A DNA stretch of 56,646 nucleotides, filler included, from Sphacelaria rigidula (taxonomy: Eukaryota): assembly GCA_964200075.2 (NCBI GenBank). It is 7 parts of 7 records of this genome, joined end to end, with 100 filler letters (N's around TTAATTAATTAA, not from the genome) between each part and the next. Parts side by side here need not be neighbours in the genome. Positions count along the whole stretch, not along the records: positions 16,216 to 24,222 come from CAXNAA020012669.1; 6 more parts are not named here. One strand, 5' to 3'. The number at the start of each line of letters is the position of its first letter. Position 1 is the stretch's first letter. This document shows positions 8,009-50,000 of this stretch, in pieces. The notes beneath the pieces are model-generated. The model made no database searches, was not told the origin of the DNA, and was given only the letters and a program-made list of their open reading frames with translations. The position numbers and the translations under genes were made by a program.

Positions 8009-8108
8009 NNNNNNNNNNNNNNNNNNNNNNNNNNNNNNNNNNNNNNNNNNNNTTAATTAATTAANNNNNNNNNNNNNNNNNNNNNNNNNNNNNNNNNNNN
8101 NNNNNNNN
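8009..8108. other. Artificial contig spacer (N-run, TTAATTAATTAA, N-run); the same spacer recurs at 16116-16215, 24223-24322, 32329-32428, 40435-40534 and 48541-48640
   Basis: Six 100-bp spacers with the same six-frame-stop linker. The intervening contigs are 8008, 8007, 8007, 8006, 8006, 8006 and 8006 bp, i.e. length-sorted concatenation. Confidence 0.97.
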
Positions 8109-11400: not shown

Positions 11401-14400
11401 TATTTTATATATTACATGTTTGTGAGGTCTAAATGAACGTCACAAACGCCACACGCTCAACCCTTTTGGAACTCACAACGGAAAATTGATCATTTGCAAT
11501 TGATGGTTTTTGAGCAAGATATGGTTGATGGTTCACAGCTTAGACGCAACAATATTCGTCCAACGCGTATTTTTCAGACCCGTACGAGTGACAAGTGGAA
11601 CAAGAGAAGGTTTCCTTTTTTCTTGCTGCGACCCGTCGGCGTTTTTTTCTACACGTACACTCATGAGCTCCTTCCCCAGCCACAGTGCGCGGCAGGCCTC
11701 TGTGAAGCATGCTCCCCGCCTGACCTGCACGCCCTGCTCGCTGCAGTTTATTCTTTTTGCCGTGTCATAGCAACAAGGGCAACGCCGATGGCACTTTCGC
11801 TGAATTTATGAACTGAAGGTGTAGTAAAATCCCAGGCAGTCACTTTTCCGTGCCGCCGGGGGGGGTGCGACACTGCCCTGTACAGTACTGGGTGTGTTTA
11901 CAGCAGTTTGGGGTAATCTCGACTGCAGACTCACGTCATGCACAACATCGTGCTCATGCACGTTCCGACAGCACCATCCCGCCGTTTCAAAAATGGGTAA
12001 AGGCGACGCAGACGCCATGTCCCCTGCAGTTATGCACCGTCACTGTGGTGTAGAGTCTGCCAAGTGCCGTCGCCCCAGGGGTGATACCTTACTGCTTCGT
12101 GTCACGTCTGTATTGTATTTTGAAAATTATCTCTGTAAAACGCGGGGTATGCACAGAACTGCGCTTTGCGAAATCCGTGCCGACAATATCATACTTCGGG
12201 CTGACTATTACACAACGGCGTAGCGAAAGGCACAGAAGCCCCACCACATCTATACCGCGGGTTGATCGTTCCCGACCGTTGCACAGGCATACTTCATGCT
12301 GCATGAGATTCATGACGCCGGCTACCGCTATCATCCCGTGCCGTCTACTCTCGTGGCCGACTTTTCACGACATGCCCATACTATCTTGCACGGAGTGTAG
12401 CCGCAAGTCAATAATGTAACCTACTGAATTTACTGACTGTAGTGTTTTTCATCTGGCCTGATTACGGTAGGCGGTGTCCGTTGGCTCCCTCCCGTGTACA
12501 TGTATATCGCCTGTTCGGACGCCTGCGATTACGCTCGCCATGTACCGCCCGCACAACCCACTGTGTAGGAGTACCTGAATAGATCTGCATACACGCGGTG
12601 AGCAATCAATTACAAGCGATACAGAATCGCATTGCAATGTTTTGACGTCCTGCGAAATTCCAACCGAATACCAGGTATCACCAACGTATGATTTGCATAT
12701 AATTGCGTTTGGATGTAACGTCATGAAAAGCCTGCGCGCATCTTGGTATCTCACTACCTTCTTGTCGTGTATCAAAAATGTTTCATGGGGTTTTTTTGGA
12801 TTTGCAACGTGAGAGTCAGGGACCCATGAACGATCCAGTTGCTGAAAAGCATCGTTACAGCGTCAGAATAGCCATCAGAACGCGCCTTATGCTCGAACAT
12901 GGCAGCCATCATGAACGTCCCGTACCAAGTTACGCTACATAAAACGTTACAACGTCGTACGTAGCGTTCATTTGCCCTCAACACGGTCAAAGTGTGATGT
13001 TTTTTTGACGTCACGTCCAAATGTAACGTTATTTTTACGTCACACGTCACATACAAACTTTTCACAATACGCCATCGGTACGTGACGTGAGGTATAATTT
13101 TTTAAGATATCACAAGTGTGACGTGACGTGACGTTTTAAAATGTGACGTGATGTGACGTGTAACGTGTAACGTTGAGTGACCTGGGATTTTCTATGGTTT
13201 ATTGGGCAGAAGAAAACAGAGAACTACATGAAGCTTCGTATGGACTAAAAACTAGCAAGAATTTTCGACGAGAACGACAGGTATCACTTACAGCAAGACC
13301 ATAGCTGCGCGAGCAAGCTTCAAAAATATATGGAAAGTCATACACAGCACGACGCACACCAGCGTCGAATCTCATTGACGGGCGTCAAACAACACCAGAC
13401 AACAGCGTCTCACAAGATATACAAGTCCCTCAGATATTGGATAATCAATTAAATGATGTCGTAATAATGTGTACCTGAATGCTCCGCATGCGACGAGCAT
13501 GAACATGTTGGCCGGAAACGCGGTAGAGCGCCACCTTAGATATGGCACAGCCAAGCCCATCACCTCCGGCGGAGCCCCCATGAGAGAAAGAAGACCCGCG
13601 GAATGAGCATAAAACACACCAGCCATCACTATTCCCAGCGCCACCGACAAACCCGACGCCAGCGTTAGAATCCTTCCTGTCGCCTCTCGGTTGTTGACGG
13701 CTCTGGACAGTGAATCGTGAGACAACATTTCCCGATTACAATACGAGTACAAGCATTTCAAGAAACAGACATACTAACTAAACGGTGTTGGTCACGTCAT
13801 GGAATCAGGATTGCGCAGAGGCAGACGGCGTCGAACGGTAACATCTACCAATGTTGAAATCAGGGGTGCATCACCGTAGAAACAGCCTGTAAGATAGCAG
13901 ATGTGGTTGTTTGGGTGACCGCCGTCATATACTTAGCGATGGCGGTATGCTTCGCAAATGAAGGTGTGTGTATGCGGCGACAGCCGTACCATGCTACCAT
14001 ACGAGTGCAGCTTCACGTACACGGTGCTTACTAAACATACGAGAACAGGTGCCATGGACGTCACAATGCGACGTACCGACAACACGTAACTTAGAGCGTA
14101 ATCTGCATCTTGACATACCGAACGTATCACACCCATTTCATTGATGCCATGCAAACGACAGCTGGACAATGCTCACCGTTGCTCCGAGACCAATACAGAG
14201 GTGGACACCATGAACGCGCAACTGCGGGTACGGAAGAGAGTCATCACAGAAACGCGGGGGCAGAAAAAATGTCGAATATTAGAAGGATGATCAACTATAG
14301 ATGGGTCGGGAACCATCGCCACGCATCTGGATTCGACACACGTGGAATATGTAAAATATGTTAACAAGGGAGAGCCAGTGCAGCCTTCGCCACAAAGTGT

Positions 14401-14737
14401 GTGCACACGTGTGCTGCGTGGCTGCGGTACTCGACACATCAACACGTTGATATGGACGGCCGGGGGTAGAGCATCAGTGTACCTGGCTGTAACGAAAACG
14501 AAGTTGAACGCAGCCGCGCACGGTCCAATGGCAGCGAGGCTAAGTGCGCCAAGACGCCCCACGAACCCTGTGTCGACCAGAGACAAGCACGGGTCGATCA
14601 ATACCGCGCCGAGCGTCGGGAGTGCCAAATCCAGAATCTCGCGGTCGAACGTATTTACTTTGCTAGCGCCACTGGCCGCCGAGTAGATTTTCTGCAGTGC
14701 CCGTGCCCTTCGTCGGAGCTGGAGGGGCTCTTGTGGT
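8404..14737 (-). CDS. MATE/DinF-family (DTX-like) efflux transporter, partial spliced gene (N-terminal half)
   Basis: Phase-compatible GT-AG exons at 14737-14483, 14221-14177, 13702-13475, 9561-9423 and 8538-8404. They give FDREILDLALPTLGAVLIDPCLSLVDTGFVGRLGALSLAAIGP...YLRWRSTAFPANMFMLVACGAFRGLGEAK...NVVLDPFLMFTCGLNVAGAAIATAAAQW, which are classic DinF/MATE motifs. A further upstream exon is possible near 15808-15967. The 3' exons are off the contig. Confidence 0.93.
10393..10862. mobile_element. Foldback/MITE-like element with ~190-bp imperfect inverted arms, in a MATE intron
   Basis: ~10393-10585 is the reverse complement of ~10671-10862 (e.g. CCACGAGGATTCTAGCGCA / TGCGCTAGAATCCTCGTGG). 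Confidence 0.8.
11186..13184. mobile_element. Non-autonomous TIR DNA transposon (~2 kb) with GTCAC/GTGAC subterminal repeats, in a MATE intron
   Basis: The left end CTTAACGCTACACGTCACAC mirrors the right end GTGTAACGTGTAACGTTGAG. Dense GTCAC/GTGAC arrays occupy ~11195-11450 and ~12930-13175. No transposase ORF recognised. Confidence 0.65.
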
Positions 14738-16215
14738 CTGCTGCGGTCAGGTTGACAGGCGCGTCCATAGCAATCGAGAACATATCAACGTGGGGTGGCG
14801 AGGAATGATAGCATGGATACAGACATAAGCACAAGCGATAGAAATTGCTTACAAGAGTGAAGACTACATACTGTACTCACATCGTTAACCCCTAGACAGC
14901 AACCCCCCCCGCAGGTGGACAGAGTTAGACTAAGCCACATCTGGGGTTCAGAACAATCATTTTCTCGCTACACAAAACGCCTTTCTTCGTAATCATGTGG
15001 ATCCTGGGTATCCATGTAGAAAACAGCTCCGGAGAACCCCTGACCGGTATTCGTCGTGCAGTCAAGAGCATACAGAGTCAGTATGTGCGCGGTATGTCTC
15101 CGCTAGATACAACGGCAAGAAAGAGTCAGCGTGCCCTCGCTTTCCACAGAACGCAATTGACTGCATGGTGCTGATGCCTCTGCTTCTAGTGTTCAACAAC
15201 ACTCCGGACAGTGAAGCTATGCTGGCAGCACATGAGGCGTCAGGCAGGCGGCACAAACCTCGAGCAGAGTACAAAACAAAGTCATTAATACCCATGTAAT
15301 CCATGGTTGAAGTGCAATGACAGCGAAATAGTCCCCCTGCAGTCCACCTCTAGGGGAACTACGTGCTCATTTTGACGACCGTGATTGGTCAGAATAGTTA
15401 TCCCGCACCTCTCCGGCCTCGTTCCTGGCTTAGAATCTTCGGCGGGAAACTTCCGAACACACATGGTTGACTCGGTGAGTTTTTCGGCTGCTCTTCGGAC
15501 AGACGCCCCCCTCCCTCAAAAACCACCCCCCCCCGGCTACTGGAAACCCCCGGATGTCTCCGGACTGCCAGCCCGTAAAGCTGTTCCGAGGTGACGCTCG
15601 CTGTCTTAAATTCAACTACAATTGTGACGGTAGAAAAACAATTCGTGTGTTCTGTGGTGCCAGCTGCCAGTTACGAGGTTACGTGCTGTATGCGTTGCCA
15701 GTTGCCAGTTGCCAGTTGGCGTTCGAAGCCCCCAAATCCCACGCAAGGTCCACGCTAGCAATCCTGCAGTAAGCAGTGCCTCGTGCGCAATGCGCTAAAT
15801 ACTGTACCGCATTTCGAGTTCTCCGTTCCCCGTCCTCCAATGAAGGCCATGGCCGGTCTTGTCGGTACGGCGTGGGGAGGGTGTTTTCGGCGGGTGTAGG
15901 GCCGGAATCACTTTCAAGGAGTAATTCCTTCTCACGACCATCCTTGGCCAAGGCCGTGGTGCGATACTAGAGTTGGGTCAGCGCGGTGCTCATCAGGCAC
16001 ACCCACCCCTGCTGTAATACAGCAGTGTGTGTGTTGTCCCATCTATACTGGACGCCAGTCTACCCCTTTCGGGATATGTGGGCGGATCAGCCGGGGTCAC
16101 ACAGGAGGAAGGTCANNNNNNNNNNNNNNNNNNNNNNNNNNNNNNNNNNNNNNNNNNNNTTAATTAATTAANNNNNNNNNNNNNNNNNNNNNNNNNNNNN
16201 NNNNNNNNNNNNNNN

Positions 16216-16342
16216 CGTTTTAAAGTCCGCATCAATCTTCCCGATTGATTCGAGGTCCCAAGGCCTCAAGCCAGAGAGCACAGGTGCGGTAATCATTAGA
16301 GTTCAGTACACTACCTTGCGTAGGTACCTCTCTTTTTCACAC
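16216..16342 (+). repeat. 127-bp perfect direct repeat, copy 1 (putative Penelope pseudo-LTR / element 3' end)
   Basis: Identical to 22036-22162. It begins with RFKVRINLPD*, reminiscent of a GIY-YIG C-terminal tail. The true left edge is unknown because it coincides with the contig start. Confidence 0.9.
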
Positions 16343-17058
16343 GTACATCTTATGATAGTATCCTCGTGCTATATACCAGGATGACCGTCGCAAGCCCGGT
16401 CTCGGCCATCAACATATTCGTGTGATGATCCCCGCATTGACAATCCGTCCATCATATGACGTCAACGAATATCGGGTAACAGATACCTGTTCTCCAATCA
16501 ACGTGAGGTTGGGAAGATGAAAAAAAACGGGGGCACATGTACATCGTTCTCATGATGACAGCGACGTGCTACGGAGAGGCCCCTCGACTGCAGGTCTGAC
16601 GGGGCTGCATTAATACGAAAATGAGTGCGAAAAACCGTCGTTGTACTGCTACGCACCCTCGCCGGGGGAAGGAGCTGCAGTGTGACTGGCCCGGGTGAGA
16701 GAAGTGCGGAGCATCGAGCGTGGCGATCGAGCGGAAGAGTCAACGAGAGCCTTGCAAGTGCAATGTATATCAACCTAATATGAAGTAAGGTAGACGTCGG
16801 GGTGTTCATACCTTGATCGAAGACGCAATGTTTGGGCCTAGTACAAAGTCCTTGACATGTGGCACCATGCATTGCTTTGCACTTGATGTTGAACACCAGG
16901 ACAACCCACCTTCTTGCTTCGAAGGTAGAGGTACATGGCGTCTCTATGGGGCATGTGCTGTCCGAAACTTGCGGCGAAGTGATCGAGAAACGCCACGACG
17001 TGCTCCTGTCGGCTGCGTACCTGTGAGCTATCAGCCCTGCATGTCAAACACGTTGTAG

Positions 17059-18608
17059 GAGAAACGCCGATGGATCGACGTGGTGGTAGGTTGGACAGTG
17101 CGGAGGAACGTCGAATCAGAATCGTCACGGCACTCGGTCGATCGAAACTCGGTATAACGTGGGCTGCGCCGCTGTCATGCACTCATGGTCTGTCTGTACG
17201 GGCTTGAAGAGAGGGTGCTGTTGGCACGGCGATGTCGACGTGCGGGATAGGTGCCTGTGCGATAGGTTGTGGGGGATTCAAATTTAAATCCCATGCGTTC
17301 AAATGATGCAAGCGCTACACGGTGACGTTTGCTACACTGCGCTGGCGCTCGGGATACATTAGTGACACCGCGACCCCATTGCTTCGCCGTGAACTTGTGC
17401 TGACTGCAGAAGCTGTGCACTTTTGTGAGGAGCCGCACGCCGCCATGATGGATCGGTGTATGCGCTGCGACCCAACTGAACCCATGAAAGCATGCCGGCC
17501 ACATGAACATCGACCAGCACTGGAAACAATGTATCCATTTTCAAACATTACCCCTGTTCCGGTCAACAACGACAGGTGAGCACCGCAGAACGACGGCGGA
17601 GTACAGTGCTTAAAACAAAAACAAGAAAAATCTTTTCGGTTGACCTTTCCCTGTGCCCCCGCCGGCAGGTACGCCCAGATACACCGAAAGGTGTACACCG
17701 GCGTGCAGGCGTCCAGAATAGATGGGACGATAAGCACCCGTGCACACACCCATACATACACGCACGACCCCGCGTGGTCGGTGTAACAATTACAGTGCAC
17801 AACGAGCACGGGCGACGGGTACAGCCTGAGTAGTTGGTCTCGATCCCGCAGAACATTGTAAGTCATGGCACGAGATACCTGTTGAGGACTACCGAAGATC
17901 GTGGGTTCCTCTTCGCGGACTCGATGGTGTTGTGCGACACTCGGAACGCGAGTGCGAAAAACGAGTTACAAACCAGCTAGTTCGCCGCTAGCATGGATCC
18001 CCGATTTTTTCTGAGCTTCACAAGTAGCACCGGTCGACTCACCCAATCCAGCCGCGCGCGACATGACCTCGGTTTTGCAAACTCCGATTGCTCTGCGCGC
18101 AGTACGACGATATCACGGGCACCGCAAACTAAACCCTCAACACACTTCAGTGTCTTGCAGCACTGAAGTGACATCTGCATCATGTCTGTTACGTCGGTAG
18201 TACCCGGCCGTGTCGTGCTCTTCGAATCGTTCTGAAGGGATCGGCTTCCCGAGTCTTGGGCTATACTGCCCCGATGTACGAAGGAGCCGTGGAGAGGTGG
18301 GGTGCTTGGGCTCATTTTCTGGAGGGGGCATGGGCTCAGACCTGCGGGAGAGGGGACATCATCACCTCCAGGTGAGGGTTTCCCTGGCCGCTGACGTTCA
18401 CGTTGGGCGAACACCACCCGACTTGCCACGTACGCGCTCATGTTGCAGTGCTGCGAGGTGGACTTGTCCGCTGCGGGCGGACAGTGTGTCGTTTGAAAAC
18501 TGCTGCTCACGCCCGACTTGTCTGCCCGTCGGCGCCCGGAAGGCGTCCAGCGTATCTTCTCGGATGAAAGTTCACAACGGTCGGATGAGCTTCCTAAATC
18601 TCCGTTGA
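17059..18608 (+). pseudogene. Decayed spliced SAM-dependent methyltransferase with beta-class N6A/N4C DNA-MTase-like motif order
   Basis: Exon-like 17059-17575 reads IRIVT....KLGITW...RA*REGAV...GFKFKSHAFK*CK...SNITPVP, resembling the RxLKxGG and GF...W-x-K motifs. Exons ~18237-18371 and 18449 onward, joined over a 77-nt phase-0 GT-AG intron, read LGLYCP...CLGSFSGGGMGSDLRERGHHHLQ|CCEVD: FxGxG plus an acidic motif II at canonical spacing. There are three TGA stops and no intact (D/N/S)PP(Y/F). Confidence 0.5.
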
Positions 18609-19117
18609 ATATCCGTGCACGATGCATAGTACCCCTTCATTCAAATGAGCGGTTGTAGTAATCGCAAACAGTGGCATTGCGCGGGGTTTCTGATCTGAAA
18701 ATTTTATTCCGTTTTCGTGTTCCGTTTGTACTCCTCGCACATCGCTCCATGCCCGCACCGGGACCCCACGTGTATGCACGGGTGATTAGTCCGCAAAAAC
18801 GAACGTTGCGAAGCCGCGTTCCAAGAGGAGGAGACGTGGTCGGTGGGATAACCAAAAATACTCGTCGTCACACATGAAATACGCGTGTCCACATGCCACA
18901 ATCAGTTTTCCCGCAGTGAGATGCCACTGACATATCGCGCATGTCGGCGCGGTAAATAACGGGTGACCCGCGCTACGAAACGGAACACAAATGGCGATAC
19001 CATATCTTCCCAAATTACCGCGCCTGCAATCCCACCTCCTTGCATACACACCGCCCTCCACTTCCATAGAGCAACACAAACCGCCATCGGTTATTCGCAT
19101 CCGGTGCCGACGGTGGA

Positions 19118-22035
19118 ATGTCTGGGGCCGTGGCTGATGTGCGGGGGGGTGCTGGGCCCGAAAAGCGGGGTCACAACAGCCAGGGAACCCTCGCGAACAG
19201 TCTAACCCGGAACTTCATCGCTTGCTTCGACGTGCCTCTTAGCCAAATAAGGCTGACGGAGTTCACGCGCCCGCTGAACGATAGAGGTATAGATTTGATG
19301 GTGAAGTCCATCACGGACAAGGGATGGCTCCCGCACGCCGAGCCTGCGCTAGTCGTGGACAGGGAAGGGCTGCCGCACGGCGAGTTCACCGAGGACTGCA
19401 TTCCGACAGCCGTCTACAAAGTACTTGACGGAAACCATCGACTCGCAGCGGCCAAGAAGATCATGAGCGCAGAGACGAGACTACGCTGCCGTGTGCACTA
19501 CGCGTTCGATGCTGCTGCCATGAGGGTCTTGGGCGATTGTACGTTTGCCGCGTGCCTACGTTCCCGCTTGTGTTCCCGCTTGTTGTGAATCGACGAACGG
19601 TTTGTGGCGTGCGTGCAGCATTTAACAGTCGGCGGTATTCACCATCGATCTCAACATGTGACACAGATACCCCACATGCGCTCGCCGCCCCGCAGCAAGT
19701 ACCAGTTTTGGTAGCAATGTCTCAAGTTTCATGTGCTCCAGTGGCGCGGTGTGCTGTCTACTTATGTGCCATCTTTTGTTTTGAACCACATGCCCCGCAT
19801 TTTGAAGGTCGAGGAGGACAACTCTGCGGCTGTAATCGTCCTGGTTGTTACACACACGAAACGGCCTCCCCGAGAAGAAGTAGGAGAGCAATATTTCCTG
19901 GCGAGATTCGTTTGTTTCACGTTCGAAATTTGGCGCAGTCCATGTGGTCATGAAAAGGGTTCGAGCACGTACATGTTTGCTGATCCCCCGCACGATATTG
20001 AGGCACCCCATTGAGCACCGCAGGGATATGTATCGCATGCCCGCACAGCATAGATCTGCGCAGGTGTCAATCATGTCACTACTTCCTTTTCGGACATGAA
20101 TCTGGCTTTAGACCGGCTTCCACCGCCATACCAGTAGTTTACGTTTGCTGGTCCCTTTTTCCCCGCGCCCCCTGCTTGCACATCTTGTTTATGCTGTAAC
20201 AATCGTGCGGCGTTCAGCAGCACTCAATGATGCCACCGAGACCATAACCGCGCGATCAACGTACGACACTTTGTACCTTCACGCCGAGAACATAAAGGGC
20301 ATTAAGGAGAGGACGAAGAAGTCAGAGGTCACCGCGCAGGAGATGGCCGAAGCATACAGGACGGTGCGTATGTACGTCAGGAATGCTTCAATGCGTATAT
20401 CCCCTGCTGCCTTGAATGCAGCGGTTTTTCCCCTTTGCTTCACTTTTTTTTTCGATCGAAAACAACTGTATTATCTGATAGGTCCACCGCATTTATGTTC
20501 CTCGAAGGCTTCAACTCAAAATCTTGATTAGAGCCGCGCGGAAAAATACGCAACGAGTGAAAAACATAGAAATCGATCGAAAACGTGCAATCGACAGGCA
20601 CGAAGCCGCACTTCACTCTTAACTTACAGACCACCACGCCAAATATCACCCGTTCACAAGACTATGCAAACTCCATCCAACTCATTCTCAGCTACCAACG
20701 CAACCCTGCAGCATGGAGCAAGAGTTGAGCACAGGGATAGATACACGAAAGTAGTTGGGTGGTGCATTGTATTTTTTTGGTGGCGAGAACTTGCGCATCT
20801 TCTCTCATGGTAGTCATGAGGGACGGAGCTGCGCGCCGGTATTATGGGCAGCCGAGTTGAGTGCACGCTCATGGACAATGCAGGCAGGACAAAGCTGCAC
20901 GTTGCTGAGGTTATTTTGGAATCGCTTTGTAAGCAGAGAGAACTGATAGTCTTGGGCGATCTACACTGCACATTGTCCGCTTCCCCTTTATTTTCTCCTG
21001 CGCGAAGCACGCACACACGCACTCACGACACCCTACTTGCAAGCAGTGCAAACAGTACGGACCATGTACCGTGTCACGATTTTTATCGTCTTCTTTCGAT
21101 CGAAAGCTTGAAGATTCATTCGGACCCAACTGCATCAAAACAACTTTTCACTTGATTCGATTCCACCGCTCGTCTTTTCGATGGAAGAAAAACGTGATAA
21201 GACACGCCCTGGGCACATGGATTGCCGGTGGGGAAAGTGCGGTGAAGAACGAAAATCTTGTTCTGACAGGTCGCAATTAAAAACCATCGTCGATTATTTT
21301 CAAGATGGGTAAAACCATGACCTATCAGGTACGGACCTTTGTCTTCCACCGCACGTTTTCGATCGAAAACGCAGGTGCGAACACAAGCCCCGAGAGTGAA
21401 AATCGGCCGAGTAGTGTATGAATTGTTCCACTTCCGACATGCCCCTCCACGAGGCCCAATACGCGTTCCGCAGTAGCTTAGCCCTGAGGCCCTTGACATC
21501 CCTGACTTGGTTATCGATGTGTACCTTCAAGTGCACGCCAGTGATTGAGGCAAAAAAAAAAAAAACAGAATGAACACTTAGCTGTTTTAAAGCGAATTGT
21601 CGCAGCCATTCTCAGTCGGCGCTCTACTCTCAATAATATGACAACGTTGTCATGAGGTGTGCTCAGTGTTGACTGTGCCGTCTGCCATGCCCGGAATTCA
21701 CCCCGCTTGAAATGAGACGGGCGCGCAACCGCCGCAGTCCGGTGATCCCACGACGCCGCAGTCATGGTCGGGAGGTTCTCATGGCTCACACACACATTCT
21801 CCTGCCCGCGTGCTGTCTTCAAATCCTTCTTCCCGCGGACGTGCGAACCCCGCAGGCAGGAATCAATCCACCCAGCGTTCAGACGCTCCGGATCTGGAAG
21901 AAGGCAGTGTGTGGTATGTCTCAGGAAGGGTTTGAGGCAGTCCGCGACGTTTTCCAAAGCGCGGACGACCCTATTAACGCGAAGCATGTGTCGCTAAATT
22001 GTTTCACACGCAAGAACTTCTCCGCCATGAAGGGT
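19118..22035 (+). CDS. Intron-containing ParB-like protein (ParB/Srx N-terminal domain plus HTH), cut at its 3' end by the Penelope-like insertion
   Basis: Exon 19118-19538 gives VPLSQIRLTEFTRPLNDRGIDLMVKSITDKGWL...YKVLDGNHRLAAAKK. It splices in phase 1 to 20221-20363 (SLNDATE...VTAQEMAEAYRT), then in phase 0 to 21856-22035 (AGINPPSVQTLRIWKKAVCGMSQEGFEAV), reconstituting a ParB-type HTH across the intron. Extra exons within 20364-21855 are not excluded. Confidence 0.8.
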
Positions 22036-22162
22036 CGTTTTAAAGTCCGCATCAATCTTCCCGATTGATTCGAGGTCCCAAGGCCTCAAGCCAGAGAGCA
22101 CAGGTGCGGTAATCATTAGAGTTCAGTACACTACCTTGCGTAGGTACCTCTCTTTTTCACAC
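22036..22162 (+). repeat. 127-bp perfect direct repeat, copy 2 (putative 5' pseudo-LTR)
   Basis: Identical to 16216-16342; the offset is 5820 bp. Confidence 0.9.
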
Positions 22163-22510
22163 ATAGCTAACCTTCACCCTACCCACCTCGTGCCAGACCC
22201 AGCCGTAATTGCCCGTTTGACTAAGACGGGGCACCTGTATTTCATTATACATAAGGTGGCTGTGGTCCTGCACTGCTTTTATAATAGCTATAAAAGCACT
22301 ACCGTCCACTCTCGGAAACCTCAAGTGTTCGGTAGACCATTACTCACCAAAACGTGTGTAATGGTAGAGTTTACGCTTCATTGCGCTCAAACTCGATTCT
22401 GTACAGAAAAAGTCAACCTTCACCGGTTACACACCTGTACACCTTTCTCATAGTCCTCAACCCGGAACCATTCTGTGCCAAATTTCCGCACGTTGTACAG
22501 ACTGCAGAAG

Positions 22511-23770
22511 ATGGATACCACCCACCGAAAACCGGGTCTCGCGTACAACAGGCTTACAAGTCTTTTCGTGGCGGAGAAGAAAAACATCCGCAAGTCGTTC
22601 GAACGCCTGCTACTGCTCAACCATTCGCTGGAGGAACAGAAAAAGTCGCTCCAGGCGCTTCACCACGCGGGGACTTTTCCCAAAAGTCTCACGATTCAGC
22701 CCGCTACAAGTCGAGTGCGAGCAGAGTTACCCTATATAGATGGAGGTAGAGCTTACGAACAAATGCTTGCCGATGTAGATGCAGCCAACAAGAAATTCAG
22801 GGAAACCTCAATTGGTGACCTTGGAAGAGAGGCCGCACTAGTGAGAAAGGACATTTCCAAGTTGCTGTCAGCCGAAGAGTTACAACGTCGTGTAGATACA
22901 GCTGTTGGCATATTCGGCTTGAAATGCCCTATTGTGTATAGACAATGGCGACAACAGTACCTGGGAATAGATAGTTCGACTGCATCTCCCCCCGAACCCC
23001 CTACAGATTCACCGCAATCTAATGGAGGCGGCGGAGCTGCTATGAACTTAGAAGAGGATGCAAGTTCTAGTGCTAATTCTAGTGTAGACTCAGGTTCACT
23101 TAATTTGAACCTCCCACATACCGATGGGTTTGAGAACATACCCCTTGCGCAACCCGCTGCTCAACCCGTTGCGCAACCCGTTGCTCAACCCCCTGCACAG
23201 CCCGCCGCTCCGGCGGAGCTTGCACCCTCTGCAGTCTCTCCAAAAATAGCGGAAATCCAAAACACATTGAAAGATGTCAAACTCTTGAAAGAAGAGGATC
23301 TGCACATTCGAACGGAGAAAACTGCTGCCGCTAAAGCTGACAAACGAGCCAAAGCGGCATTAGCTGCTACGGATAGCGAGTTGTCCTTGGAGTCTCTGCA
23401 TGCTTCCATAGTAACCCTATCGAAAAGCATAGGCAACTTGAAAAGAGGCAGAAACACAACCACCCCGGGAAACAACTCCCAGAACGTTGGAAAACACCAA
23501 AAACGCCCTGGTAAACCTCCCAAGGGCAAAGCCCCTTTCCAAAAGGGACACAACGTTCGCGCATCCATTTCCAGTAATAATAAGCAGCAGAGTAAAGGTA
23601 AAGGTAAACCGAAGCCCAAGCAGACAGCAGATAAAAGACCCCCCCCGCAGGGTAGAAATACTGCTAGACGTAACTCTTCTGTCGCACAGGAGAAACAGGC
23701 CAACGTTTCTAAGCGTACTGCCGAATCAGGTAGCGCAGCCCCCCGGAAGAAAGTCCGTGAGGATTTTTAG
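22511..23770 (+). CDS. PLE ORF1 (419 aa from the first ATG): helical/coiled-coil N-terminus, AQP-repeat linker, Lys/Arg-rich C-terminus
   Basis: The longest intact, intronless ORF in the window. It contains AQPAAQPVAQPVAQPPAQPAAP repeats and a very basic tail (KGKGKPKPKQ...PRKKVREDF). Confidence 0.8.
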   Translation: MDTTHRKPGLAYNRLTSLFVAEKKNIRKSFERLLLLNHSLEEQKKSLQALHHAGTFPKSLTIQPATSRVRAELPYIDGGRAYEQMLADVDAANKKFRETSIGDLGREAALVRKDISKLLSAEELQRRVDTAVGIFGLKCPIVYRQWRQQYLGIDSSTASPPEPPTDSPQSNGGGGAAMNLEEDASSSANSSVDSGSLNLNLPHTDGFENIPLAQPAAQPVAQPVAQPPAQPAAPAELAPSAVSPKIAEIQNTLKDVKLLKEEDLHIRTEKTAAAKADKRAKAALAATDSELSLESLHASIVTLSKSIGNLKRGRNTTTPGNNSQNVGKHQKRPGKPPKGKAPFQKGHNVRASISSNNKQQSKGKGKPKPKQTADKRPPPQGRNTARRNSSVAQEKQANVSKRTAESGSAAPRKKVREDF

Positions 23771-23843
23771 ATCCCCTGGTAGAGGTAACGAGTATCTATC
23801 GGCGTGGGCTCTCTTCCATACTCGTTGGAGGACCGAGAGATAG
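23761..23843 (+). promoter_or_regulatory. Putative programmed -1 ribosomal frameshift signal (slippery G_GAT_TTT, TAG, downstream stem/pseudoknot)
   Basis: The heptamer 23761-23767 is in X_XXY_YYZ phase. A 9-bp stem forms between AACGAGTAT (23787-23795) and ATACTCGTT (23818-23826). Loop CTATC and TCTC are complementary to downstream GAGAGATAG (23835-23843). Confidence 0.75.
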
Positions 23844-24222
23844 GAACATAGGGTACAAGCGTACACTTAAGGCGAAGAAGTGGAAGCAGGATAAAAGCAC
23901 GAGATTGACTGTGAAACGTAAGGCGCGACGCCGTAGGCTTAGGAACAAAATATTCCGTGAGCTGAACACGGAAATTAACAACCTGCCATTGACACATGTC
24001 ATCATTCGTCAGATTCGTTCCCTCCTCCCTGTACTCTTGAAAGAGAACGTCAAGGTCACCAACACCCATGTGATTGGAAACGTACCGACATTGCCACCTG
24101 CAGTGGTCTCGCTTCTTAGCAAAGGCTTAGCATGTGCTATACCATCGACCCGTCCGTCCAAATGTTTGGACACTGCAGTACAGCAATTTTTTCACCGATT
24201 AAAAGTGAAATACAAATACGGT
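23761..24222 (+). CDS. PLE ORF2, N-terminal part (RT polyprotein); no ATG, -1 frame relative to ORF1
   Basis: Open from 23761 (directly after TGA 23758-23760) to the contig end: GFLDPLVEVT...KRKARRRRLRNK...LLSKGL...FFHRLKVKYKYG. Confidence 0.78.
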
Positions 24223-25763
24223 NNNNNNNNNNNNNNNNNNNNNNNNNNNNNNNNNNNNNNNNNNNNTTAATTAATTAANNNNNNNNNNNNNNNNNNNNNN
24301 NNNNNNNNNNNNNNNNNNNNNNACATTGCCAAAATAAATAAGAAAAAAACTAAGAAGAGCGACGCCACGAAAACCGGTGAGAAGTAGCTCCCCCGAGTTC
24401 AACGGGGAGAGAAAAGAAAGAAAGAAAAACAAACGAACAAACGACAAACGCCAGATCTGTCGGAAGTGTATACCGAAAGAAAAGGAAGAGAGAAGATAAT
24501 AAACGACAAGAACCAGGAAAAGACAGGTGACACAAGAAGAGTAGTATGGCCACCATGTTAGGGGTTCAGCTCAGAAACAAAAAGAAACAAAAACAACCCC
24601 AGACACCCTCATAATATGTTAAAAAATGAGCGTTATTTATCTATAGCAGGCTCGGTCGAGCAGCTGTTGCTGATTTCAACGACGATTTGCCTTGGAATTT
24701 CGTGCAAGAAGTGGCCCAAAATACCCCCTTCCCCCCTGTCGTAGGATGACTCACGTCTGTGAGACCCCTTGCCGCGAGAGCTGCATTCCCCGGCATCTGT
24801 TCGATGACATCGATTCATATATTTTAATTCAATGCGTTTTTAATTCGATGTTAAGGCTACCCAGTGGGCATGAGGCCCGACCCGTAGAACATCACAAACG
24901 AGATCGGGGTGGCGCTGCACAATAGTTGCAAGCTCAGGCACCGCTCTAGGACCCAGCGGTTGGTGAAGCTACTATTATACATATCAGGTGAGATCACATC
25001 ATACATGCTTTGCAAAACCGACAGAGCTGTGCTGTGCTCCACAATCTTCTCCAGCCTTTTCGCACCTGTGTTGGCTGTGTTTATATGCTTTTCTCAACCT
25101 GTGTGCAAGCGCCGCAGGAAGGCAGTACAGTATCAAACTACCTCACCGGGCTCGTGTATCGTAAAATAAGGATGGCAGGCAGAGCATCCGTACGATGAGC
25201 CAGCATCAGCACTCACTTATCCGGCCATTCGCAGGAACTACCGCACAGTACAGACGGCATTTTACAGTACATCCTACTTAACTGGAGATGATCCTCGGTG
25301 CTCAAAACAACCCCGTACATGTAGCCTCAGCAGGGCCGTACATGGTGCACGCTGTCGCTCTAGGTTAAGGTTGCCTACGACTATGACCTGCTGACTATGC
25401 TGTGGATACCGTTCCTACGCTATCGTTGAGGTGGGCTTGAAGCTACTCGTCTAGTGTCACGCGAAGAGCGTGGACGATATTACCGTAAAATACTGCTCTG
25501 AAAATACCATGACGACCAGCAGCAGCCTTTTTTCGGCATCGCGGAATGTCACGTTGTTTACCGCCCCTATCAAAAACAATACAGGGTGCGGTCAGCAGAC
25601 TCGACAAAGCTTGAAATCACGTCATGTTGGCTTCCCAAGTATGGGGAATGTCGATTGCTCACCCTTCCAAGAACTCCAGCTCAATCACACTTTGCAGCCC
25701 ACTGACTGACGATCAATATTTCTCAACCGCAGTCAAAACAGCTTCTGATACCAGTGTTGAAAA

Positions 25764-26989: not shown

Positions 26990-28217
26990 GGGGGCTTAGG
27001 CTACTTCTTATGTATAAAACAAACTCTTGTCAGAAAACGCGTTTTCTGATAAATGACCAAAAACCCACTTCTTGTGAGATCAGAGAACGCGTTTTCTGAT
27101 GAAATATTATCTGGTATCATTTTCCGATAGCCCAAAGTTATCAGGAAGTTGAACAGAAAATCGTAATGTTCTGATATTGGGCTATTGAAAAATGTTATTG
27201 GAAGGCTTTTAAACACACCTTACAGGCCACGACAGCACCTGTGATGGCTTGGCTGCCATCGCTACTGCTGTCGCTGGTGCTCGCGGGCATTCAGCATGTT
27301 GCACCATTGTCTTTCACTCGCCAGTAGCGTGGTGGCCTTCTACTCCATGAGAGTAGTAGAAGGCAGGATATATGACGAGTGCTGTGCAGACAGGACAGTC
27401 TATATGTAGTCCGTACAATGTTGTAGCTCAGTTTAGGTCTGTGCACGCAGCGTGTTGCGAACAGCTGTCGCAATGCTTTACAGACTGCCCACGCGCCCAA
27501 GCCTTGTAGAGATAGGACCGGACTGGCGGTACACACAAGGCTAGAATATAGGTAGTGCTGCTACTGTAGTACATTCAATGCAAACAGCACAGCGCTGTCT
27601 GTACTGTCGTCCGTGCTGCCCGTACAATCGAGATCTACAACAGCAGCGAATTTGAAGCCTGTGCATGCAGCGTGTTGCGAACAGACGTCGCTTTGCAGTA
27701 CAGACTGCCTCCGCACCCAAGCCTTGTAGATACAGGACCGTGCTGACAGTGCACACAAGACTAGGAATAGTGCTATTGTAGTACCACAGCCAATGCATAC
27801 AATGCAGCACTGTCGTATGCCCTGTTGTCCGTGCTGTGCTTCCAGTCAAGTACTACGAGTACCGTGCAGTGAAGAAGCACAACCGTCACTTCTACAGTCA
27901 GGTTGCACAGTAAGGGGGTGTTCTTATCGATTGTCTCGGGTCACGCAGCCCACCATGTATTGCTCAGGCAATACGTCACCGTGGTACAGACAGTCAGCAG
28001 GGACCGTACACCACGACAGGACAGCAGAGTGCTGCGTCTCTCTCGCGCGCCCCAGAATTTTAAAAATTATGCCTGCACACGTCATAGAAAACGATGAACA
28101 CTGCGTTTTCAATGTTGATAGTGCGTCGATCACGTAAGAAGGGCTACTTCGAAAAATTATGTGAAACCTCGCTCTGTTGAAAAACGGCTTTTCTGATAAA
28201 GTATTTTTTTATACATA
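26990..28217. mobile_element. Non-autonomous TIR element (GGGGCTTAGGCTACTTCTTATG family), right end truncated
   Basis: Colinear with the copy at 48800-50325 plus 55697-55825. It has internal ~200-bp imperfect duplications. Another terminus of this family lies at ~41335-41363. Confidence 0.7.
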
Positions 28218-31470: not shown

Positions 31471-33368
31471 AACGCGATACACTCACTCCCCACGATGCAA
31501 CAGGTGGTGCCAACCAAGGCTATGGCATGGTTTCGGGGGATCCCTACCGCGGCAGAGGGGCGGGAGGGGGAGGCAGTATGTCCGGTGTCGGCACTGCCAA
31601 ACCCGCGTGGTTGACCGAGAAAAAAAACGAAGAGATGAAAACAGAAAAAAAACGAGGGGTCGCAGGAGGCATACAACATTCACAACATTGTGCCAAGATA
31701 CCAATCAAGTAACCTAAGAGATTACTCTACTGTAAATACTGCGAAATTGCCGGGTGCTCTGAATGAAAAATACAACTACACATGGAGGGGCGAACCCTAC
31801 TCTTGCGTACTACTGCACCTGCTCTCACGTACTACTGAAATACGTTGGTGCCACGAATGACGGCCCGACCTCCTCGGAATGAAAATCGAATCATTTAATT
31901 TCAACTTGGCACATACTACTGCACTATTTTCGGAGCGCTTTGGTCTCTGCACCCGCGTCAAAAACCACGAAAATCACCACGCGGTACCCATGATCGATTT
32001 CTGAATTTGGTGTCTAACCCTGTCAGCTGATTGCAACAAATCCAGTTGTGATCAGGGCGAAGAGATTAAAAAAAATGAAAAATCATGCAAATGTCCGACA
32101 GCAGCAAGGAAGAAGAGTCCCACGTACTGCACGTAAAGAACGCAAAACAACTTGGCCAAATAACATGCTACTCGCATCGCTCCAATAGCATATGGGCGCA
32201 GTGATGTCGCGTCAGCGGCCATTCGCGCTAGCTCTCGTTCTCTTCCTCGGTCCGGGGTGCATTGTGTTCGGGCGGGGGGCGACTTCCAACCTGGGGCACA
32301 CAAAAACTTCGACTGCTCAACTTGCACCNNNNNNNNNNNNNNNNNNNNNNNNNNNNNNNNNNNNNNNNNNNNTTAATTAATTAANNNNNNNNNNNNNNNN
32401 NNNNNNNNNNNNNNNNNNNNNNNNNNNNGGGGACACCGTCACGAGGCTCCCTGGGTCTTTCGTGCGTATCATTAGTGGAAATTAGACGACGCCGACACCC
32501 GACATCACCGAAACATCACGGTTTCGGGTAAAATTCGACCGCGGTAGTAACCGTTTCAGAAATATGATTTTCTCGTTAGATTCCCGTATGGCGACGGTTA
32601 CTACGATTTGAAGCATGTAGAGATTGGGTGAAAATTGGGCTTGGTATTCGTAATGTAGATCTCGGAACAGTTAGAAGGGCGCTGATTGGCTGAGACACAT
32701 TCGTCCATAGCGCCACCGCCACGGCCTCAAACAAAAATCCGGCTATGTCACCCTCTTCGTCTCTTCATTGCAGTCAGTATGATACCATATATGCGACTAC
32801 TGGGTGCGTATTGCGGAAGGCATTTGCTGATGACACAATTTTGGGTGATCACCGTGAACCAGCCTGTATCATTGGCCTCGTCCATCGATCAGCAGGAATC
32901 TAAAAGTTAATGTATCAGGTATTCTTCTCAGATCCCTTCATTAATAGTGACGATGTTTTCAAACGGTGTTATTCCCGGAAAGGCACAGACGGTTTGGTTT
33001 TGACGGGATTTCGAAAATAGAGAGCCAAGCCGTGTTTTGAAAAGGCAATTCGGTTGGGTAACACCACGGCGGTGTGCTCAGTAAGCGTCTCTGGGGCGTT
33101 TTTTGTCACGGTGGGGGAGCAGCTAGGGGCGGTGTCTAGTCATGTTTCTGCCAGACACTACTGCCAGGTATTGTACCCTCATATTCCACCGCATGTACCA
33201 GTGCATGCCCCGCATGGCATGTGTCGGATAGCAAATTTTGGGGAATTCCCGGGGAAAAGTCCGGCTAAATTGCCAAAACCCAATGCGTGACGTCGTCGAT
33301 GTCCAAAATTCCCCCCGCTTTAAGCGGCGCTGGATGACATCAGCCGTTGATCAAGGAAGAGTGACCGA

Positions 33369-40146: not shown

Positions 40147-42617
40147 CTGGGGCACAGGACACAGCAATCACCATGAAAAACAGCATGATGATGAGAAAAA
40201 AAATTGAAACAACGATCGTTGGCACCGTATCGAGAAGCCGTTTGGGGTACACGAGCGCCATGGCACCCTTCTCCACGGACGGTTCTCGTGTTCACCAGTA
40301 TTTTCGGGTTTACTACCTCGAGAAGCAGTCTCGCGCTCGACAGGTTAAATCCGGACTGGTTGAGGGGGGGGCGTACTCATTTGTTGCTTGCCTTAGTCAT
40401 TTGACCATTGACCACGCATCCCTTTCGAGACGGANNNNNNNNNNNNNNNNNNNNNNNNNNNNNNNNNNNNNNNNNNNNTTAATTAATTAANNNNNNNNNN
40501 NNNNNNNNNNNNNNNNNNNNNNNNNNNNNNNNNNCCCCTGAGGCTACGAGTAAAAAGTGCGTCGTTTGTGCCCATGTGATTCATGATTTGTGATCAAAAT
40601 GATTATCCTGGTCTGCAAAAACTTCTGTGCAAACCGGATACACGTCACGTCAATCGCTGTCTGTGTCAAGTTGTGCTCAAAATACTATTTCTTTGTGCAT
40701 ATGTTGCTGTGCTGACCTCAAAAAAACACCACAACCACACCATCACCCGTTGATTCGCCATGTTTTGGGCGTGTGCTCTGGTGCCTGCGCTGGCAGCGAG
40801 GTGGTTGGTGTGGTGTGTGTTGTCGGGAGGACGGTTACACGTTACACGTCACGCCTGTTGGCCAATAGCATCTCCTATTTAAAGTCCAAACCGAGCGAAA
40901 CGTTATCATCGGACTTTGGACTGACTTCGGACTTCGGACTTCGGGAGAATTACGAAGTCCAAGTTGTGACCCGAATTTGGTCTTCGCAAACACCATCACT
41001 ACTGTACTCTCTGTGCTTGCAGAGTACAGCCTGTACTCGGACAGGGCAGGTGAACAGCACCCACATAGTTCACAGTAACACTGCTACACGCATAGAGAAC
41101 ATCCTCAGCGGGCAGGGTATACTTGTAACCTTGTACTACTGCATGTCCGAGTACAGGCTGTACTACCCCAATTTTTGGCCAAGAGCGAAACTGTCACCTA
41201 CGGAAAACGCAAAGGTGCTCTGGAACGGTCTCAGCGAGTAGAGCAAGTCATTCCAAGGTGTCAACATCCACTGAGCCCTCTATTCGGGGCAAGAACGACG
41301 GAGAGGGGTAAAAAAAGTACTTTTCAACAAGTTATATTTTTCGATACATAAGAAGTAGCCTAACAACGGAAAAGGAAAAAAGAAGAATGGAAGCGCGATG
41401 CAAAGCAGAGCAATCGTTCTTACATAGGTACATTGTTTTCACTCATGACCACGGCACCAAGCGGTGGCAAGCATTCATCGTATGTCTGGTGCTTTGCCCA
41501 CCAGGTGCACGACGCTTGCTCTCGTTTGCCGCCGCATCGTTGCATCCAACAGCGAATATGCGCGACTTCAACACGACCTGCACGGGTCTGTACTCTCCCC
41601 CGATCTATTGCCATACAATTGTGAAGGGACCTGTGTGCGCCAAAGTGCCGTGACCCTCCGCGCGGCATTCAACGCCCGTGGTTGTGCCCGTTTTAGAAAC
41701 AAAGCGTGGGTAGTTTCCCCACACTACACTGAAGCAAGCCGGATTCACGCTAAAAGCATATATCGGATAGGATGTAGGGTCAGCCATATTGATAAACTGA
41801 CTGTCGCACATGAAGTCATCCCCTAGGAACCCGGCCGTAGACCCAAGACAAGGACATACCCGAGGCAAACAGCACGGAAATGCTCGCTGAAGAAAAGTAA
41901 GGGCGCAGAGAAAGCAAAAGAGGGGACCGGAGGAGTAGCAAAATAAGATTAAATGAAAATAATTACGACACGAACCTAGAAAAAGCCAGCCCCTGGGGCA
42001 TGATTTCACGTGGAGAAGGCCTGCGCGAAAAAAAGACGCACATGCATCCATCCCCAAAACGAAAATATGTCGTTGCAGCAGATCACGGCTCAGCTATTCC
42101 GGACCAAATTATCCGTGCATGACCTCTCACCCGTGAGCGCTGTGGTAACAAGGCGCCAAACTGCCATAATACTATATTGCACTTGAAAAAGAAACAGCGA
42201 GAGATAAATAAAAACGGGAAGAAGAGAAATACTGTAGCGAACAAGCCTAAGGATAAAGTAGAGCACGGGGCATATGCAAGAGCACAAGCACTGAACACTG
42301 CAAGGCCGCAGGCCGGGGAAAAGTCGACAACCGATAGGAGAAGACAGAGGTAGACCAGTCCCGTGCTGAACCCGCTTCCCCTACACATCCCTAGTATAGT
42401 CGAGTAAAAACATACATACATTTCGAAAATGCGTTCCTAGTAGCATTCCAAAATCTGCACCTATGCTCTCCTTAATACTTGCACAGACACAAGCACGGAT
42501 TCTCGAGAAGAGAGGAAAAAAAAAAGTGGAAAGTCCTTGACTTTGCAGGAGTGCAAGTCAACTCTCCCAAGCATTGGTATTCCGCCCCGTCACTCCGTGC
42601 ACCTCTAGTCGCACGCG

Positions 42618-49692: not shown

Positions 49693-50000
49693 CGCCGCAC
49701 CCCGGTGGTATAATGGTCCGACTGTCGCCATTTGGGTGGAGAGAACGGGAGTTCGATTCCCGATGCGTTGGGGTTTTTCTTCGTCGTGTATGATTTCCAC
49801 CATGGAAAGCGTGAGAACGCGAGTAAACAAAGTAGTCGAGTGGGTTTGTGTGACGTGAGTTGACGCCGTGCGGGAGTGCTGACCCAATCCGTGAGACCAA
49901 AATGAAAGGCACGTGCCGGGGGAGAGATGGGTTGATTCCTTGAGACCACGGACTCATCCCGAGGAAGGGCAGCGGTTCAAAGTGTGAGAAGAAAAACAAA
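49693..50000 (+). mobile_element. Full-length tRNA-derived SINE (~310 bp) with ~18-bp target-site duplication
   Basis: A box TGGTATAATGG, B box GTTCGATTC, A-rich tail. Flanks are TGACAGTACACATCAGAC and TGACAGTACACACAAGAC. The paralogous empty site at ~27744-27761 has the motif once. Confidence 0.85.

Follow-up and report, generated by a model that had tools for sequence, protein, structure and literature searches.

The locus

The DNA considered here, called the window in what follows, is a stretch of 56,646 nucleotides (nt) from the brown alga Sphacelaria rigidula (assembly GCA_964200075.2) made up of seven pieces of 8006-8008 nt each. These are joined by linkers of 100 nt (44 N, TTAATTAATTAA and again 44 N; at 8009-8108, 16116-16215, 24223-24322, 32329-32428, 40435-40534 and 48541-48640), so that adjoining pieces are not necessarily neighbours in the genome. 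Piece 3 (16216-24222; 8007 nt; record CAXNAA020012669.1) holds the ParB-like gene that is the subject of this report. A first-pass annotation, made from the sequence alone, had read it as a eukaryotic, intron-containing gene for a protein with a ParB/sulfiredoxin (Srx) core and a helix-turn-helix (HTH), of the kind known from cytidine triphosphate (CTP)-dependent DNA clamps, and had inferred a nuclear DNA-binding nucleoside triphosphatase (NTPase) that a mobile element probably carries. The parts of the gene are these:

19118-19538, + strand: exon 1; start codon and some 25 residues of low complexity, followed by the predicted ParB/Srx-fold domain (residues ~30-140)
19539-20220, + strand: intron 1; 682 nt, GT..AG, phase 1, position conserved across the family
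20221-20363, + strand: exon 2; conserved (S/A)LND motif at the start of a linker, which leads into the first helices of the middle region (…VTAQEMAEAYRT)
20364-21855, + strand: intron 2; 1492 nt, GT..AG, phase 0, containing a cluster of palindromes
21856-22035, + strand: exon 3; putative DNA-binding helices (…PPSVQTLRIWKKAV…, with an invariant Trp)

Joined at these junctions, the exons (19118-19538, 20221-20363 and 21856-22033) give 247 codons with 0 stops, and the peptides quoted in the first-pass annotation are all there, distributed over exons 1, 2 and 3. The frame of exon 1 (19118-19537) is translated as ...IRLTEFTRPLNDRGIDLMVKSITDKGW...YKVLDGNHRLAAAKK...MRVLGD, its nearly invariant residues being R51, G57, S64, G69, W70, P76 and D104-G-N-H-R108, and exon 3 as AGINPPSVQTLRIWKK.... 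With a slash for the junction, intron 1 has the donor T/GTACGT at 19539 and the acceptor CAGCAG/, which ends at 20220 and has another in-frame AG 3 nt upstream of it; in intron 2 the donor is ACG/GTGCGT at 20364 and the acceptor CCGCAG/, with its end at 21855. The GC content at third codon positions (GC3) of the exons is 0.70 versus an intron GC content of 0.50-0.52.

Stronger evidence for the junctions comes from relatives. When P0010, a 301-amino acid (aa) protein of S. rigidula, is compared with the window by tblastn, it falls into three colinear blocks that meet at the proposed junctions, residues 25-137 matching 19202-19537 (E 1e-26), residues 138-183 matching 20220-20357 (E 4e-9) and residues 187-241 matching 21859-22023 (E 2e-5). 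Both P0010 and P0096, the latter from Pylaiella, are continuous proteins across both junctions, and the three phase-matched, stop-free GT-AG exons of the earlier annotation are thus borne out by colinearity with uninterrupted brown-algal proteins. A less direct trace of intron 1 is present in the family at large. Among 53 homologues of exon 1, mostly calls at the level of open reading frames from unannotated contigs, 45 have [G/C/R/S][E/K] right after the D140 column (33 with E and 12 with K); this is the expected product of reading through a phase-1 donor of the form N/GTGAG or N/GTAAG, which makes intron 1 a character of the family. Three of the 53 (P0010, P0047 and P0053) go on into exon-2 sequence, (A/S)(L/F)N(D/E).

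As a gene model read from sequence comparison, a three-exon, GT-AG, brown-algal nuclear gene is confirmed, far beyond what chance would provide. The nearest relatives with a name come from nuclear records of brown algae (Sphacelaria, Pylaiella, Ectocarpus and Undaria), in agreement with the eukaryotic setting first proposed, and there was no tblastn match at E<=0.01 among 50,697 phage and 72,556 plasmid records.

A ParB/Srx fold in exon 1

An exhaustive phmmer search with exon 1 against 1.84 billion representative proteins gave 102 relatives at E<=1e-3, of which 30 were at E<=1e-10. In an alignment of 54 sequences G105 is invariant, with R51, G57, S64, G69, W70, P76, D104, N106, H107 and R108 each kept in at least 90%. 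The AlphaFold2 model of exon 1 that was derived from this alignment has a mean predicted local distance difference test score (pLDDT) of 88.5 and a predicted template modelling score (pTM) of 0.76. When it is compared with the PDB by Foldseek, 10 of the 10 matches at E<=1e-3 are ParB with cytidine diphosphate (CDP) or CTP, Noc, PadC or sulfiredoxin; the best of them, ParB-CDP (6sdk; E 3.8e-5), is re-aligned by VIA with Z 10.2 and a root-mean-square deviation (rmsd) of 2.5 over 88 residues. VIA places 37 chains at Z>=8, with bacterial ParBs, Noc and PadC at Z 9.8-10.1, sulfiredoxin at 9.1 and KorB at 9.0. Among the viral models of BFVD there are 41 that match at E<=1e-3. Of those listed, the ones with a name are mostly ParB-like; the top match, at E 9.5e-6, is to an uncharacterised Cafeteria roenbergensis virus protein.

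Some sequence profiles point the same way. Exon 1 matches two PHROGs, 4715 ('ParB-like partition protein'; E 3.6e-4) and 1033 (E 0.012), and its relatives match PHROG 1033 together with other ParB-like PHROGs. Sub-threshold Pfam matches occur in 10 of the 54 relatives, five to GmrSD_N, two each to DUF6551 and DUF3723 and one to DndB, and the Atlas leads for exon 1 agree with these families, of which at least GmrSD_N and DndB have the same fold as ParB/Srx. Other searches were silent. Exons 1 and 2 have no Pfam match and that of exon 3 to ComX, at E 0.25, is noise; NCBIfam and PADLOC hold nothing relevant and no ParB model is matched there; by sequence against the PDB exon 1 has six matches, at E 0.8-1.1, none of them to ParB; and a word-based homology search with exon 1 found none among longer proteins, the same search giving three matches for P0010 and four for the middle-region profile. 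The best match of the family profile in the PDB, to phycocyanin beta (E 0.0048), was set aside as spurious, a coincidence of DGNKR.

On the strength of the model, the assignment of exon 1 to the ParB/Srx fold stands, with AlphaFold2, Foldseek, VIA, BFVD and PHROG 4715 in agreement. The ParB/Srx core that had been proposed from a few motifs thus has its counterpart in the predicted structure, fold matches to ParB being just what the comparison returned.

How much of the nucleotide site is kept?

For the mapping of motifs a profile was made from 24 usable bacterial ParB sequences, encoded by genes beside parS sites, and aligned by hhalign with the family profile. The match is weak (P 0.018) and in register with the structural result. 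It sets S64 and G69 of the family opposite the SI..G of ParB and D-G-N-H-R opposite (a)-G-E-R-R; the QP of ParB faces a gap beside T50-R51, R51 being at or next to the position of the Arg, and there is no conserved Gln in the family. In M. xanthus ParB, according to the excerpts of PMC13229309 drawn on here, S68 and G73 contact cytosine and R54, R95 and N127 bind phosphates, with hydrolysis driven by Q52 and E93.

The G-x-x-R motif is retained, as G105, without exception, and R108, in at least 90% of the 54 sequences, align with the G and the last R of GERR. These are the only two residues of that box to be kept, the hydrolysis Glu being replaced by Asn and the first Arg by His. Since the Ser and Gly aligned with the cytosine contacts are conserved together with the last Arg of GxxR, nucleotide binding by the N-domain is plausible; since the positions of the two hydrolysis residues of ParB are not kept, hydrolysis in the manner of ParB is unlikely.

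Could the remaining phosphate ligand lie in exon 2? A nearly invariant Asn opens that exon, in (S/A)LND, 35 residues after R108 and with no Glu before it; from R95 to N127 in M. xanthus ParB is 32 residues. This Asn may be the equivalent of the Asn in the ENLQR box, in an alignment that is without confidence beyond residue 125: forced past that point into the HTH region, hhalign gives zero confidence and no alignable ENLQR box.

Judged by its sequence, therefore, the family parts company with the canonical ParB/Spo0J CTPase clamps at the GERR box and would not be counted among them. The CTP-dependent clamp or NTPase of the first-pass annotation finds no support in the motifs: DGNHR replaces GERR, the two positions of hydrolysis in M. 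xanthus ParB are not kept, and neither ParB_N nor an NCBIfam ParB model is matched. Sulfiredoxin, the eukaryotic member of the ParB/Srx group, has the motif G-C-H-R with a catalytic Cys. The family has Asn at that position (G-N-H-R; Asn in at least 90% of the 54 sequences), and the earlier statement that the gene is not a sulfiredoxin holds good.

A probably truncated 3' end

Beyond exon 3 piece 3 has the following features, for the first two of which no strand is assigned:

22036-22165: repeat of 128-130 nt, 99% identical to 16216-16345; probable 5' end of an inserted element
16216-16345: second copy of the repeat; first bases of piece 3, its left edge out of view there
22511-24222, + strand: downstream frames; a 438-codon stop-to-stop frame (ATG at 22511, end at 23770) and an overlapping -1 frame that is open from 23761 up to where the piece ends

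Homology to the relatives reaches ~22033 (…RKNFSAMKG) and ends at 22035/22036, exactly where the repeat begins; the open frame of exon 3 enters the repeat and meets a stop at 22066-22068, 11 codons on. Relatives extend beyond this point, P0010 by at least 60 residues, P0123 by ~220 and P0129 by ~770. No further homologous exons are found by tblastn in the remaining 2.2 kilobases (kb) or elsewhere in the window, and five longer relatives match only exon 1 in it (tblastn at E<=0.01), their C-terminal parts being unmatched. With homology stopping at the repeat and the relatives running on, the copy in the window is probably dead, an element having, it would appear, inserted in exon 3 and left it without its C-terminal part.

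Between the repeat and the 438-codon frame is a TATA-like box, and within that frame a 12-nt tandem repeat at 23140-23211 encodes PAQPVAQP.... The unit led by the repeat, 22036-24222, resembles a gag-pol retroelement in layout and has no Pfam match. The two copies of the repeat diverge on the right, as would be understandable, at a guess, if the element had split direct repeats (Ngaro/DIRS-like); Ectocarpus is rich in Ngaro elements according to the excerpts of PMC12477816 used here.

A multi-copy brown-algal family

All named members of the family are from brown algae:

Sphacelaria rigidula: P0004, P0010, P0053, P0128
Pylaiella littoralis: P0096 and the P0104 cluster
Ectocarpus sp. CCAP 1310/34: P0086, P0129
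Undaria pinnatifida: P0137

Most of the others come from Logan, ENA or JGI contigs. The family is large and multi-copy, and is without a Pfam model match in the scans made. One cluster at 90% identity has 45 members, the 15 listed being from contigs whose longest span 36 kb to 1.6 Mb; in the Pylaiella cluster there are seven, and the six named records among them come from contigs that all differ in length; and S. rigidula itself has at least four further records, some of them damaged. The closest paralog of exon 1 is a partial S. rigidula record, P0004 (94% by phmmer and 88% by BLASTP, over 71 residues). It is without the GNHRLA stretch that holds the core motif, either through damage to the copy or through mis-splicing in its gene model. 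At the position of R108 P0010 has Glu, and P0128 loses similarity for ~130 residues, for which a frameshift or an error of the model is possible.

A tree of 60 N-domains has several deep subfamilies, with Sphacelaria, Pylaiella and Ectocarpus each represented in at least two; the window copy falls with P0010 in a poorly resolved group, and P0104 and P0129 in another. A long architecture is that of P0129 (1014 aa), in which the N-domain and middle region are followed by a low-complexity linker and ~480 further residues (~530-1014). For that C-terminus Atlas gives leads, at 0.87-0.94, to clusters of S-adenosylmethionine (SAM)-dependent and N6_N4 DNA methyltransferases (the latter at 0.87-0.89), and a DPP-type motif and a SET-like tail can be made out in it by eye. 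No DNA-modifying domain is present in the window copy (which lacks the C-terminus), in P0010 (301 aa) or in P0128 (407 aa). Pattern scans of environmental collections yielded no relative: the pattern from an alignment of eight sequences was matched 600 times in JGI metagenomes and 107 times in IMG/VR, and that from P0016 77 times in metagenomes.

Palindromes in intron 2

The longer of the two introns carries a cluster of palindromic sites, again with no strand assigned:

20450-20461: TTTCGATCGAAA, exact copy 1
20570-20584: copy with the core TCGATCGA (AAATCGATCGAAAAC), the core at 20573
21094-21105: TTTCGATCGAAA, exact copy 2
21175-21189: degenerate copy (TTTTCGATGGAAGAA), with one mismatch in the core, at 21178
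21355-21370: perfect 16-nt palindrome GTTTTCGATCGAAAAC, which includes exact copy 3

There are three exact copies of TTTCGATCGAAA in the whole window and all three are in intron 2 (at 20450, 21094 and 21357), as against 0.14 expected; none of 100 shuffles reaches three. The core TCGATCGA is also found upstream of the gene, at 17138, and occurs five times in piece 3 versus twice in the other six pieces together. Derivation of the palindromes from copies of one larger repeat, such as a miniature inverted-repeat transposable element (MITE), was considered and rejected: the flanks of the six sites align over at most ~25 nt. By analogy with what has been proposed for the red-algal protein PAG3, described below, the palindromes could be candidate binding sites of the protein that the gene encodes. 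They may just as well be a regulatory or repeat feature with no connection to it.

Comparison with known systems

The likeness to ParB, Spo0J, Noc, KorB and PadC is one of fold (Z 9.0-10.2, rmsd 2.1-2.7 over 85-91 residues), extends to the SI..G and G..R positions, and includes a helical region and a helical C-terminus that follow the N-domain in intact relatives. The identity, however, is 13-18%, the family has DGNHR where ParB has GERR, and the hydrolysis Gln and Glu positions are not kept. The gene here, moreover, is in a eukaryotic, intron-containing setting and has no context of ParA or parS. With sulfiredoxin the family shares the fold (Z 8.2-9.1) and the H-R of the motif, and differs from it in having Asn for the catalytic Cys, extra helical domains and multiple copies.

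Closer in habitat are accessory proteins of algal transposons, for which the published accounts are cited in excerpt. The Ectocarpus transposon Sola1-1_Ec32, of 21.5 kb, encodes a 1104-aa accessory protein that combines a ParB-like part with a DNA methyltransferase, and published algal elements with ParB-like accessories are 15-30 kb (excerpts of PMC12477816). The Sola1-1_Ec32 protein has in common with the present family a brown-algal host group and a ParB-like N-terminus, and is said in the same excerpts to bind the DNA of its own element. By description, which is the level of this comparison, it is similar to P0129 (1014 aa) in size and, by the Atlas leads for the latter, in the methyltransferase-like features of its C-terminus; the subfamily of the window copy, in contrast, is without the methyltransferase part and has no transposon context in view. 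In red algae the giant Plavaka transposons encode PAG3, ParB-like with a 2-oxoglutarate (2OG) oxygenase, with inverted-repeat arrays adjoining (excerpts of bioRxiv 10.1101/2025.02.11.637652). It too is an algal nuclear gene product with an N-terminal ParB-like domain, and those arrays beside the gene are reminiscent of the palindromes of intron 2, though again the likeness is one of description, the oxygenase domain being absent here and the algal lineage a different one.

Also eukaryotic, with ParB-derived modules tied to DNA modification, are proteins of chlorophytes and chytrids in which Iyer et al. (2015) found a ParB-type HTH fused to Dam-like methyltransferases (excerpts of PMC4738411). 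These, however, are defined by the HTH and the methyltransferase, whereas the secure part of the gene in the window is the ParB/Srx N-domain. That ParB folds of mobile elements can be put to use in DNA base modification is shown further by phage ParB-like activators of thymine dioxygenases (2026), with which mutation of the nucleotide site did not abolish function; the excerpts of PMC13229309 in this way supply a precedent for a ParB fold that works without ParB-type CTP hydrolysis. The activators differ from the present family in keeping the CTP residues, in being without a DNA-binding domain, and in being prokaryotic and viral.

Other features of the window

Elsewhere in the window several observations were made that are separate from the ParB-like gene:

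53615-54406, + strand: open frame with an integrase zinc-binding H2C2 domain (PF17921, E 5e-7), a remnant of a long terminal repeat (LTR) retrotransposon in piece 7
14173-14784, - strand: open frame with a sub-threshold MatE match (E 0.0013; 18.9 bits versus a cut-off of 24.9) that may be an exon of a MATE transporter
27277-28183 and 48901-50307: dispersed repeats common to pieces 4 and 7, of 63-92% identity
48901-49334: a 217-nt tandem duplication among these repeats

Function and rival readings

What would an intact member of the family do? The reading to which we incline, with somewhat more belief than doubt, is that of a multi-copy brown-algal family with a ParB/Srx N-domain, likely to serve as a DNA-binding accessory of a mobile or repeated element, the copy in the window being probably dead. 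Intact relatives would consist of a nucleotide-binding domain of ParB/Srx fold, a helical and likely DNA-binding middle, and a helical, coiled-coil-like C-terminus, with a long C-terminal extension of methyltransferase-like features in one Ectocarpus relative. The protein would be a sequence-specific DNA-binding accessory akin to the ParB-like accessories of giant algal transposons; it would mark or tether the element's own DNA and possibly recruit DNA-modifying enzymes. DNA binding we infer for the middle region, which is conserved in the few full-length relatives and has an invariant Trp (…TLRIWKK, …MRHWRK, …CNHWRK and …LKKWIC). That a mobile element carries the gene is likely, on the indirect grounds of copy number and of analogy with the published algal cases.

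Several results weigh against this reading, and those for the middle region are foremost. It was modelled on P0125, a Pylaiella record without the N-domain, from an alignment of only 10 sequences, and the mean pLDDT is 60.6, with residues 30-95 scoring 73-86 and forming four helices. Foldseek has nothing better for it than E 0.27. In an exhaustive VIA comparison with 48,161 chains, the DNA-binding domain of ParB with parS (6s6h) does come first and Spo0J (1vz0) sixth (Z 5.3), but the Z of 5.6 for the former (over 122 residues, rmsd 5.9) does not rise above what the guidance for VIA counts as noise with helical models, and both are tied with unrelated helical proteins; 13 chains have Z>=5 and none Z>=8. 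Pfam finds no HTH and no family in the middle region of five relatives; with neighbouring frames added to the five, DUF6942 at E 0.028 is its only match. A ParB-type HTH is, on the evidence of the model, plausible but unproven. Of the HTH in the first-pass annotation, then, a helical region has stood, and a significant fold or profile match to an HTH has not materialised.

Nor is the N-domain beyond objection, as exon 1 matches no Pfam family at E<=10, ParB_N included, and none of the 18 matches of the family profile among PDB sequences is to ParB. The connection of the family to ParB-methyltransferase proteins is weak: it runs through P0129 alone, which is 26-28% identical to the window exons and belongs to another subfamily, and its C-terminus has no Pfam, PDB or NCBIfam match. 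On the side of the element, the 8-kb piece shows neither a transposase nor terminal inverted repeats nor a target-site duplication, and a conserved old intron is compatible also with a long-resident host gene. As for the death of the copy, 22035 could in principle be the end of an exon, with further exons beyond the piece.

The intron leads directly to a reading that we think unlikely and take seriously all the same, in which this is a domesticated host gene family, for chromatin or transcription factors for instance, with no mobile element involved and a pseudogene in the window. The position of the intron is kept over deep subfamilies, four brown-algal genera carry the family, and the piece shows no hallmark of a transposon. 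Against such domestication there are many near-identical copies on different contigs and several damaged copies in one species, and published relatives of this kind lie inside transposons.

Rather improbable is a true nucleotide-gated clamp of ParB type, with N-domains that dimerise on CTP or another nucleoside triphosphate, load at palindromes and then spread or slide. It has in its favour that the best structural matches are nucleotide-bound ParB clamps, that the Ser and Gly at the cytosine contacts and the last Arg of GxxR are nearly invariant, that the order of N-domain, helical middle and helical C-terminus parallels that of ParB, and that a palindrome of 12-16 nt is at hand, three times exactly in intron 2 where 0.14 is expected. 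The substitution of GNHR for GERR, with Asn at the hydrolysis Glu and the QP of QPR falling in a gap, speaks against it, as do the want of a match to ParB_N or a TIGR-type ParB model, an alignment that is unsupported past residue 125 and a middle domain whose likeness to the ParB HTH is within noise.

The same fold also serves enzymes, and one acting on a protein or small molecule in the manner of sulfiredoxin, a serine kinase or SbnI, with no role at DNA, is very doubtful here. Sulfiredoxin, free serine kinase and SbnI do match nearly as well as ParB (Z 7.2-9.1), and the H-R of GNHR is common to the GCHR of sulfiredoxin. But there is no Cys at the Srx position, the helical extension with its invariant Trp and the methyltransferase-like long form point to nucleic acid, and the top-ranked match of the middle region, though not significant, is a ParB DNA-binding domain.

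Brown algae harbour many integrated viruses, and the best BFVD match is from Cafeteria roenbergensis virus (E 9.5e-6), with ParB/Srx proteins of other giant viruses among the matches. Even so, an endogenised gene of a phaeovirus or other nucleocytoplasmic large DNA virus (NCLDV), in place of a transposon gene, is hardly to be expected: the pattern scan of IMG/VR is without a relative, the viral matches do not surpass those to ParB-like proteins of phages, and a recent viral origin sits ill with spliceosomal introns that are conserved across subfamilies. Bacterial contamination, against which the first-pass annotation had already adduced the introns, or a chance open frame can be dismissed as next to impossible in the face of three spliced exons colinear with algal proteins, 102 homologues, a confident fold and no phage or plasmid match.

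Perspective

The nucleotide switches of ParB fold are best understood in the segregation of bacterial chromosomes and plasmids. Their use by eukaryotic mobile elements has so far been noted in passing, in fusions to methyltransferases or oxygenases in algal transposons, and with ParB-like proteins of algal transposons published, a eukaryotic ParB-like protein linked to a mobile element is already of a known kind. The present family appears to be a stand-alone form of the module. Among the matches listed in a full-text search of the literature on ParB and algal transposons, no description was found of the stand-alone family, its DGNHR motif or the conserved intron.

There is a slim prospect of something more, a eukaryotic switch of ParB type that would bind a nucleotide, perhaps CTP in view of the conserved residues opposite the cytosine contacts of ParB, and act, its hydrolysis residues being replaced, as a slow or non-hydrolysing clamp loading at palindromes such as GTTTTCGATCGAAAAC in its own element. 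If true, a eukaryotic ParB-type clamp would amount to a centromere-like or self-marking system for a transposon in the nucleus, and such switches might possibly be present also among other relatives, in eukaryotes that are not brown algae. The interest attaches to the family, the window copy, probably dead, being of little interest in itself. Should an intact member bind both a nucleotide and a defined palindrome, it would provide a tractable eukaryotic case of the ParB fold being reused for the recognition of self DNA.

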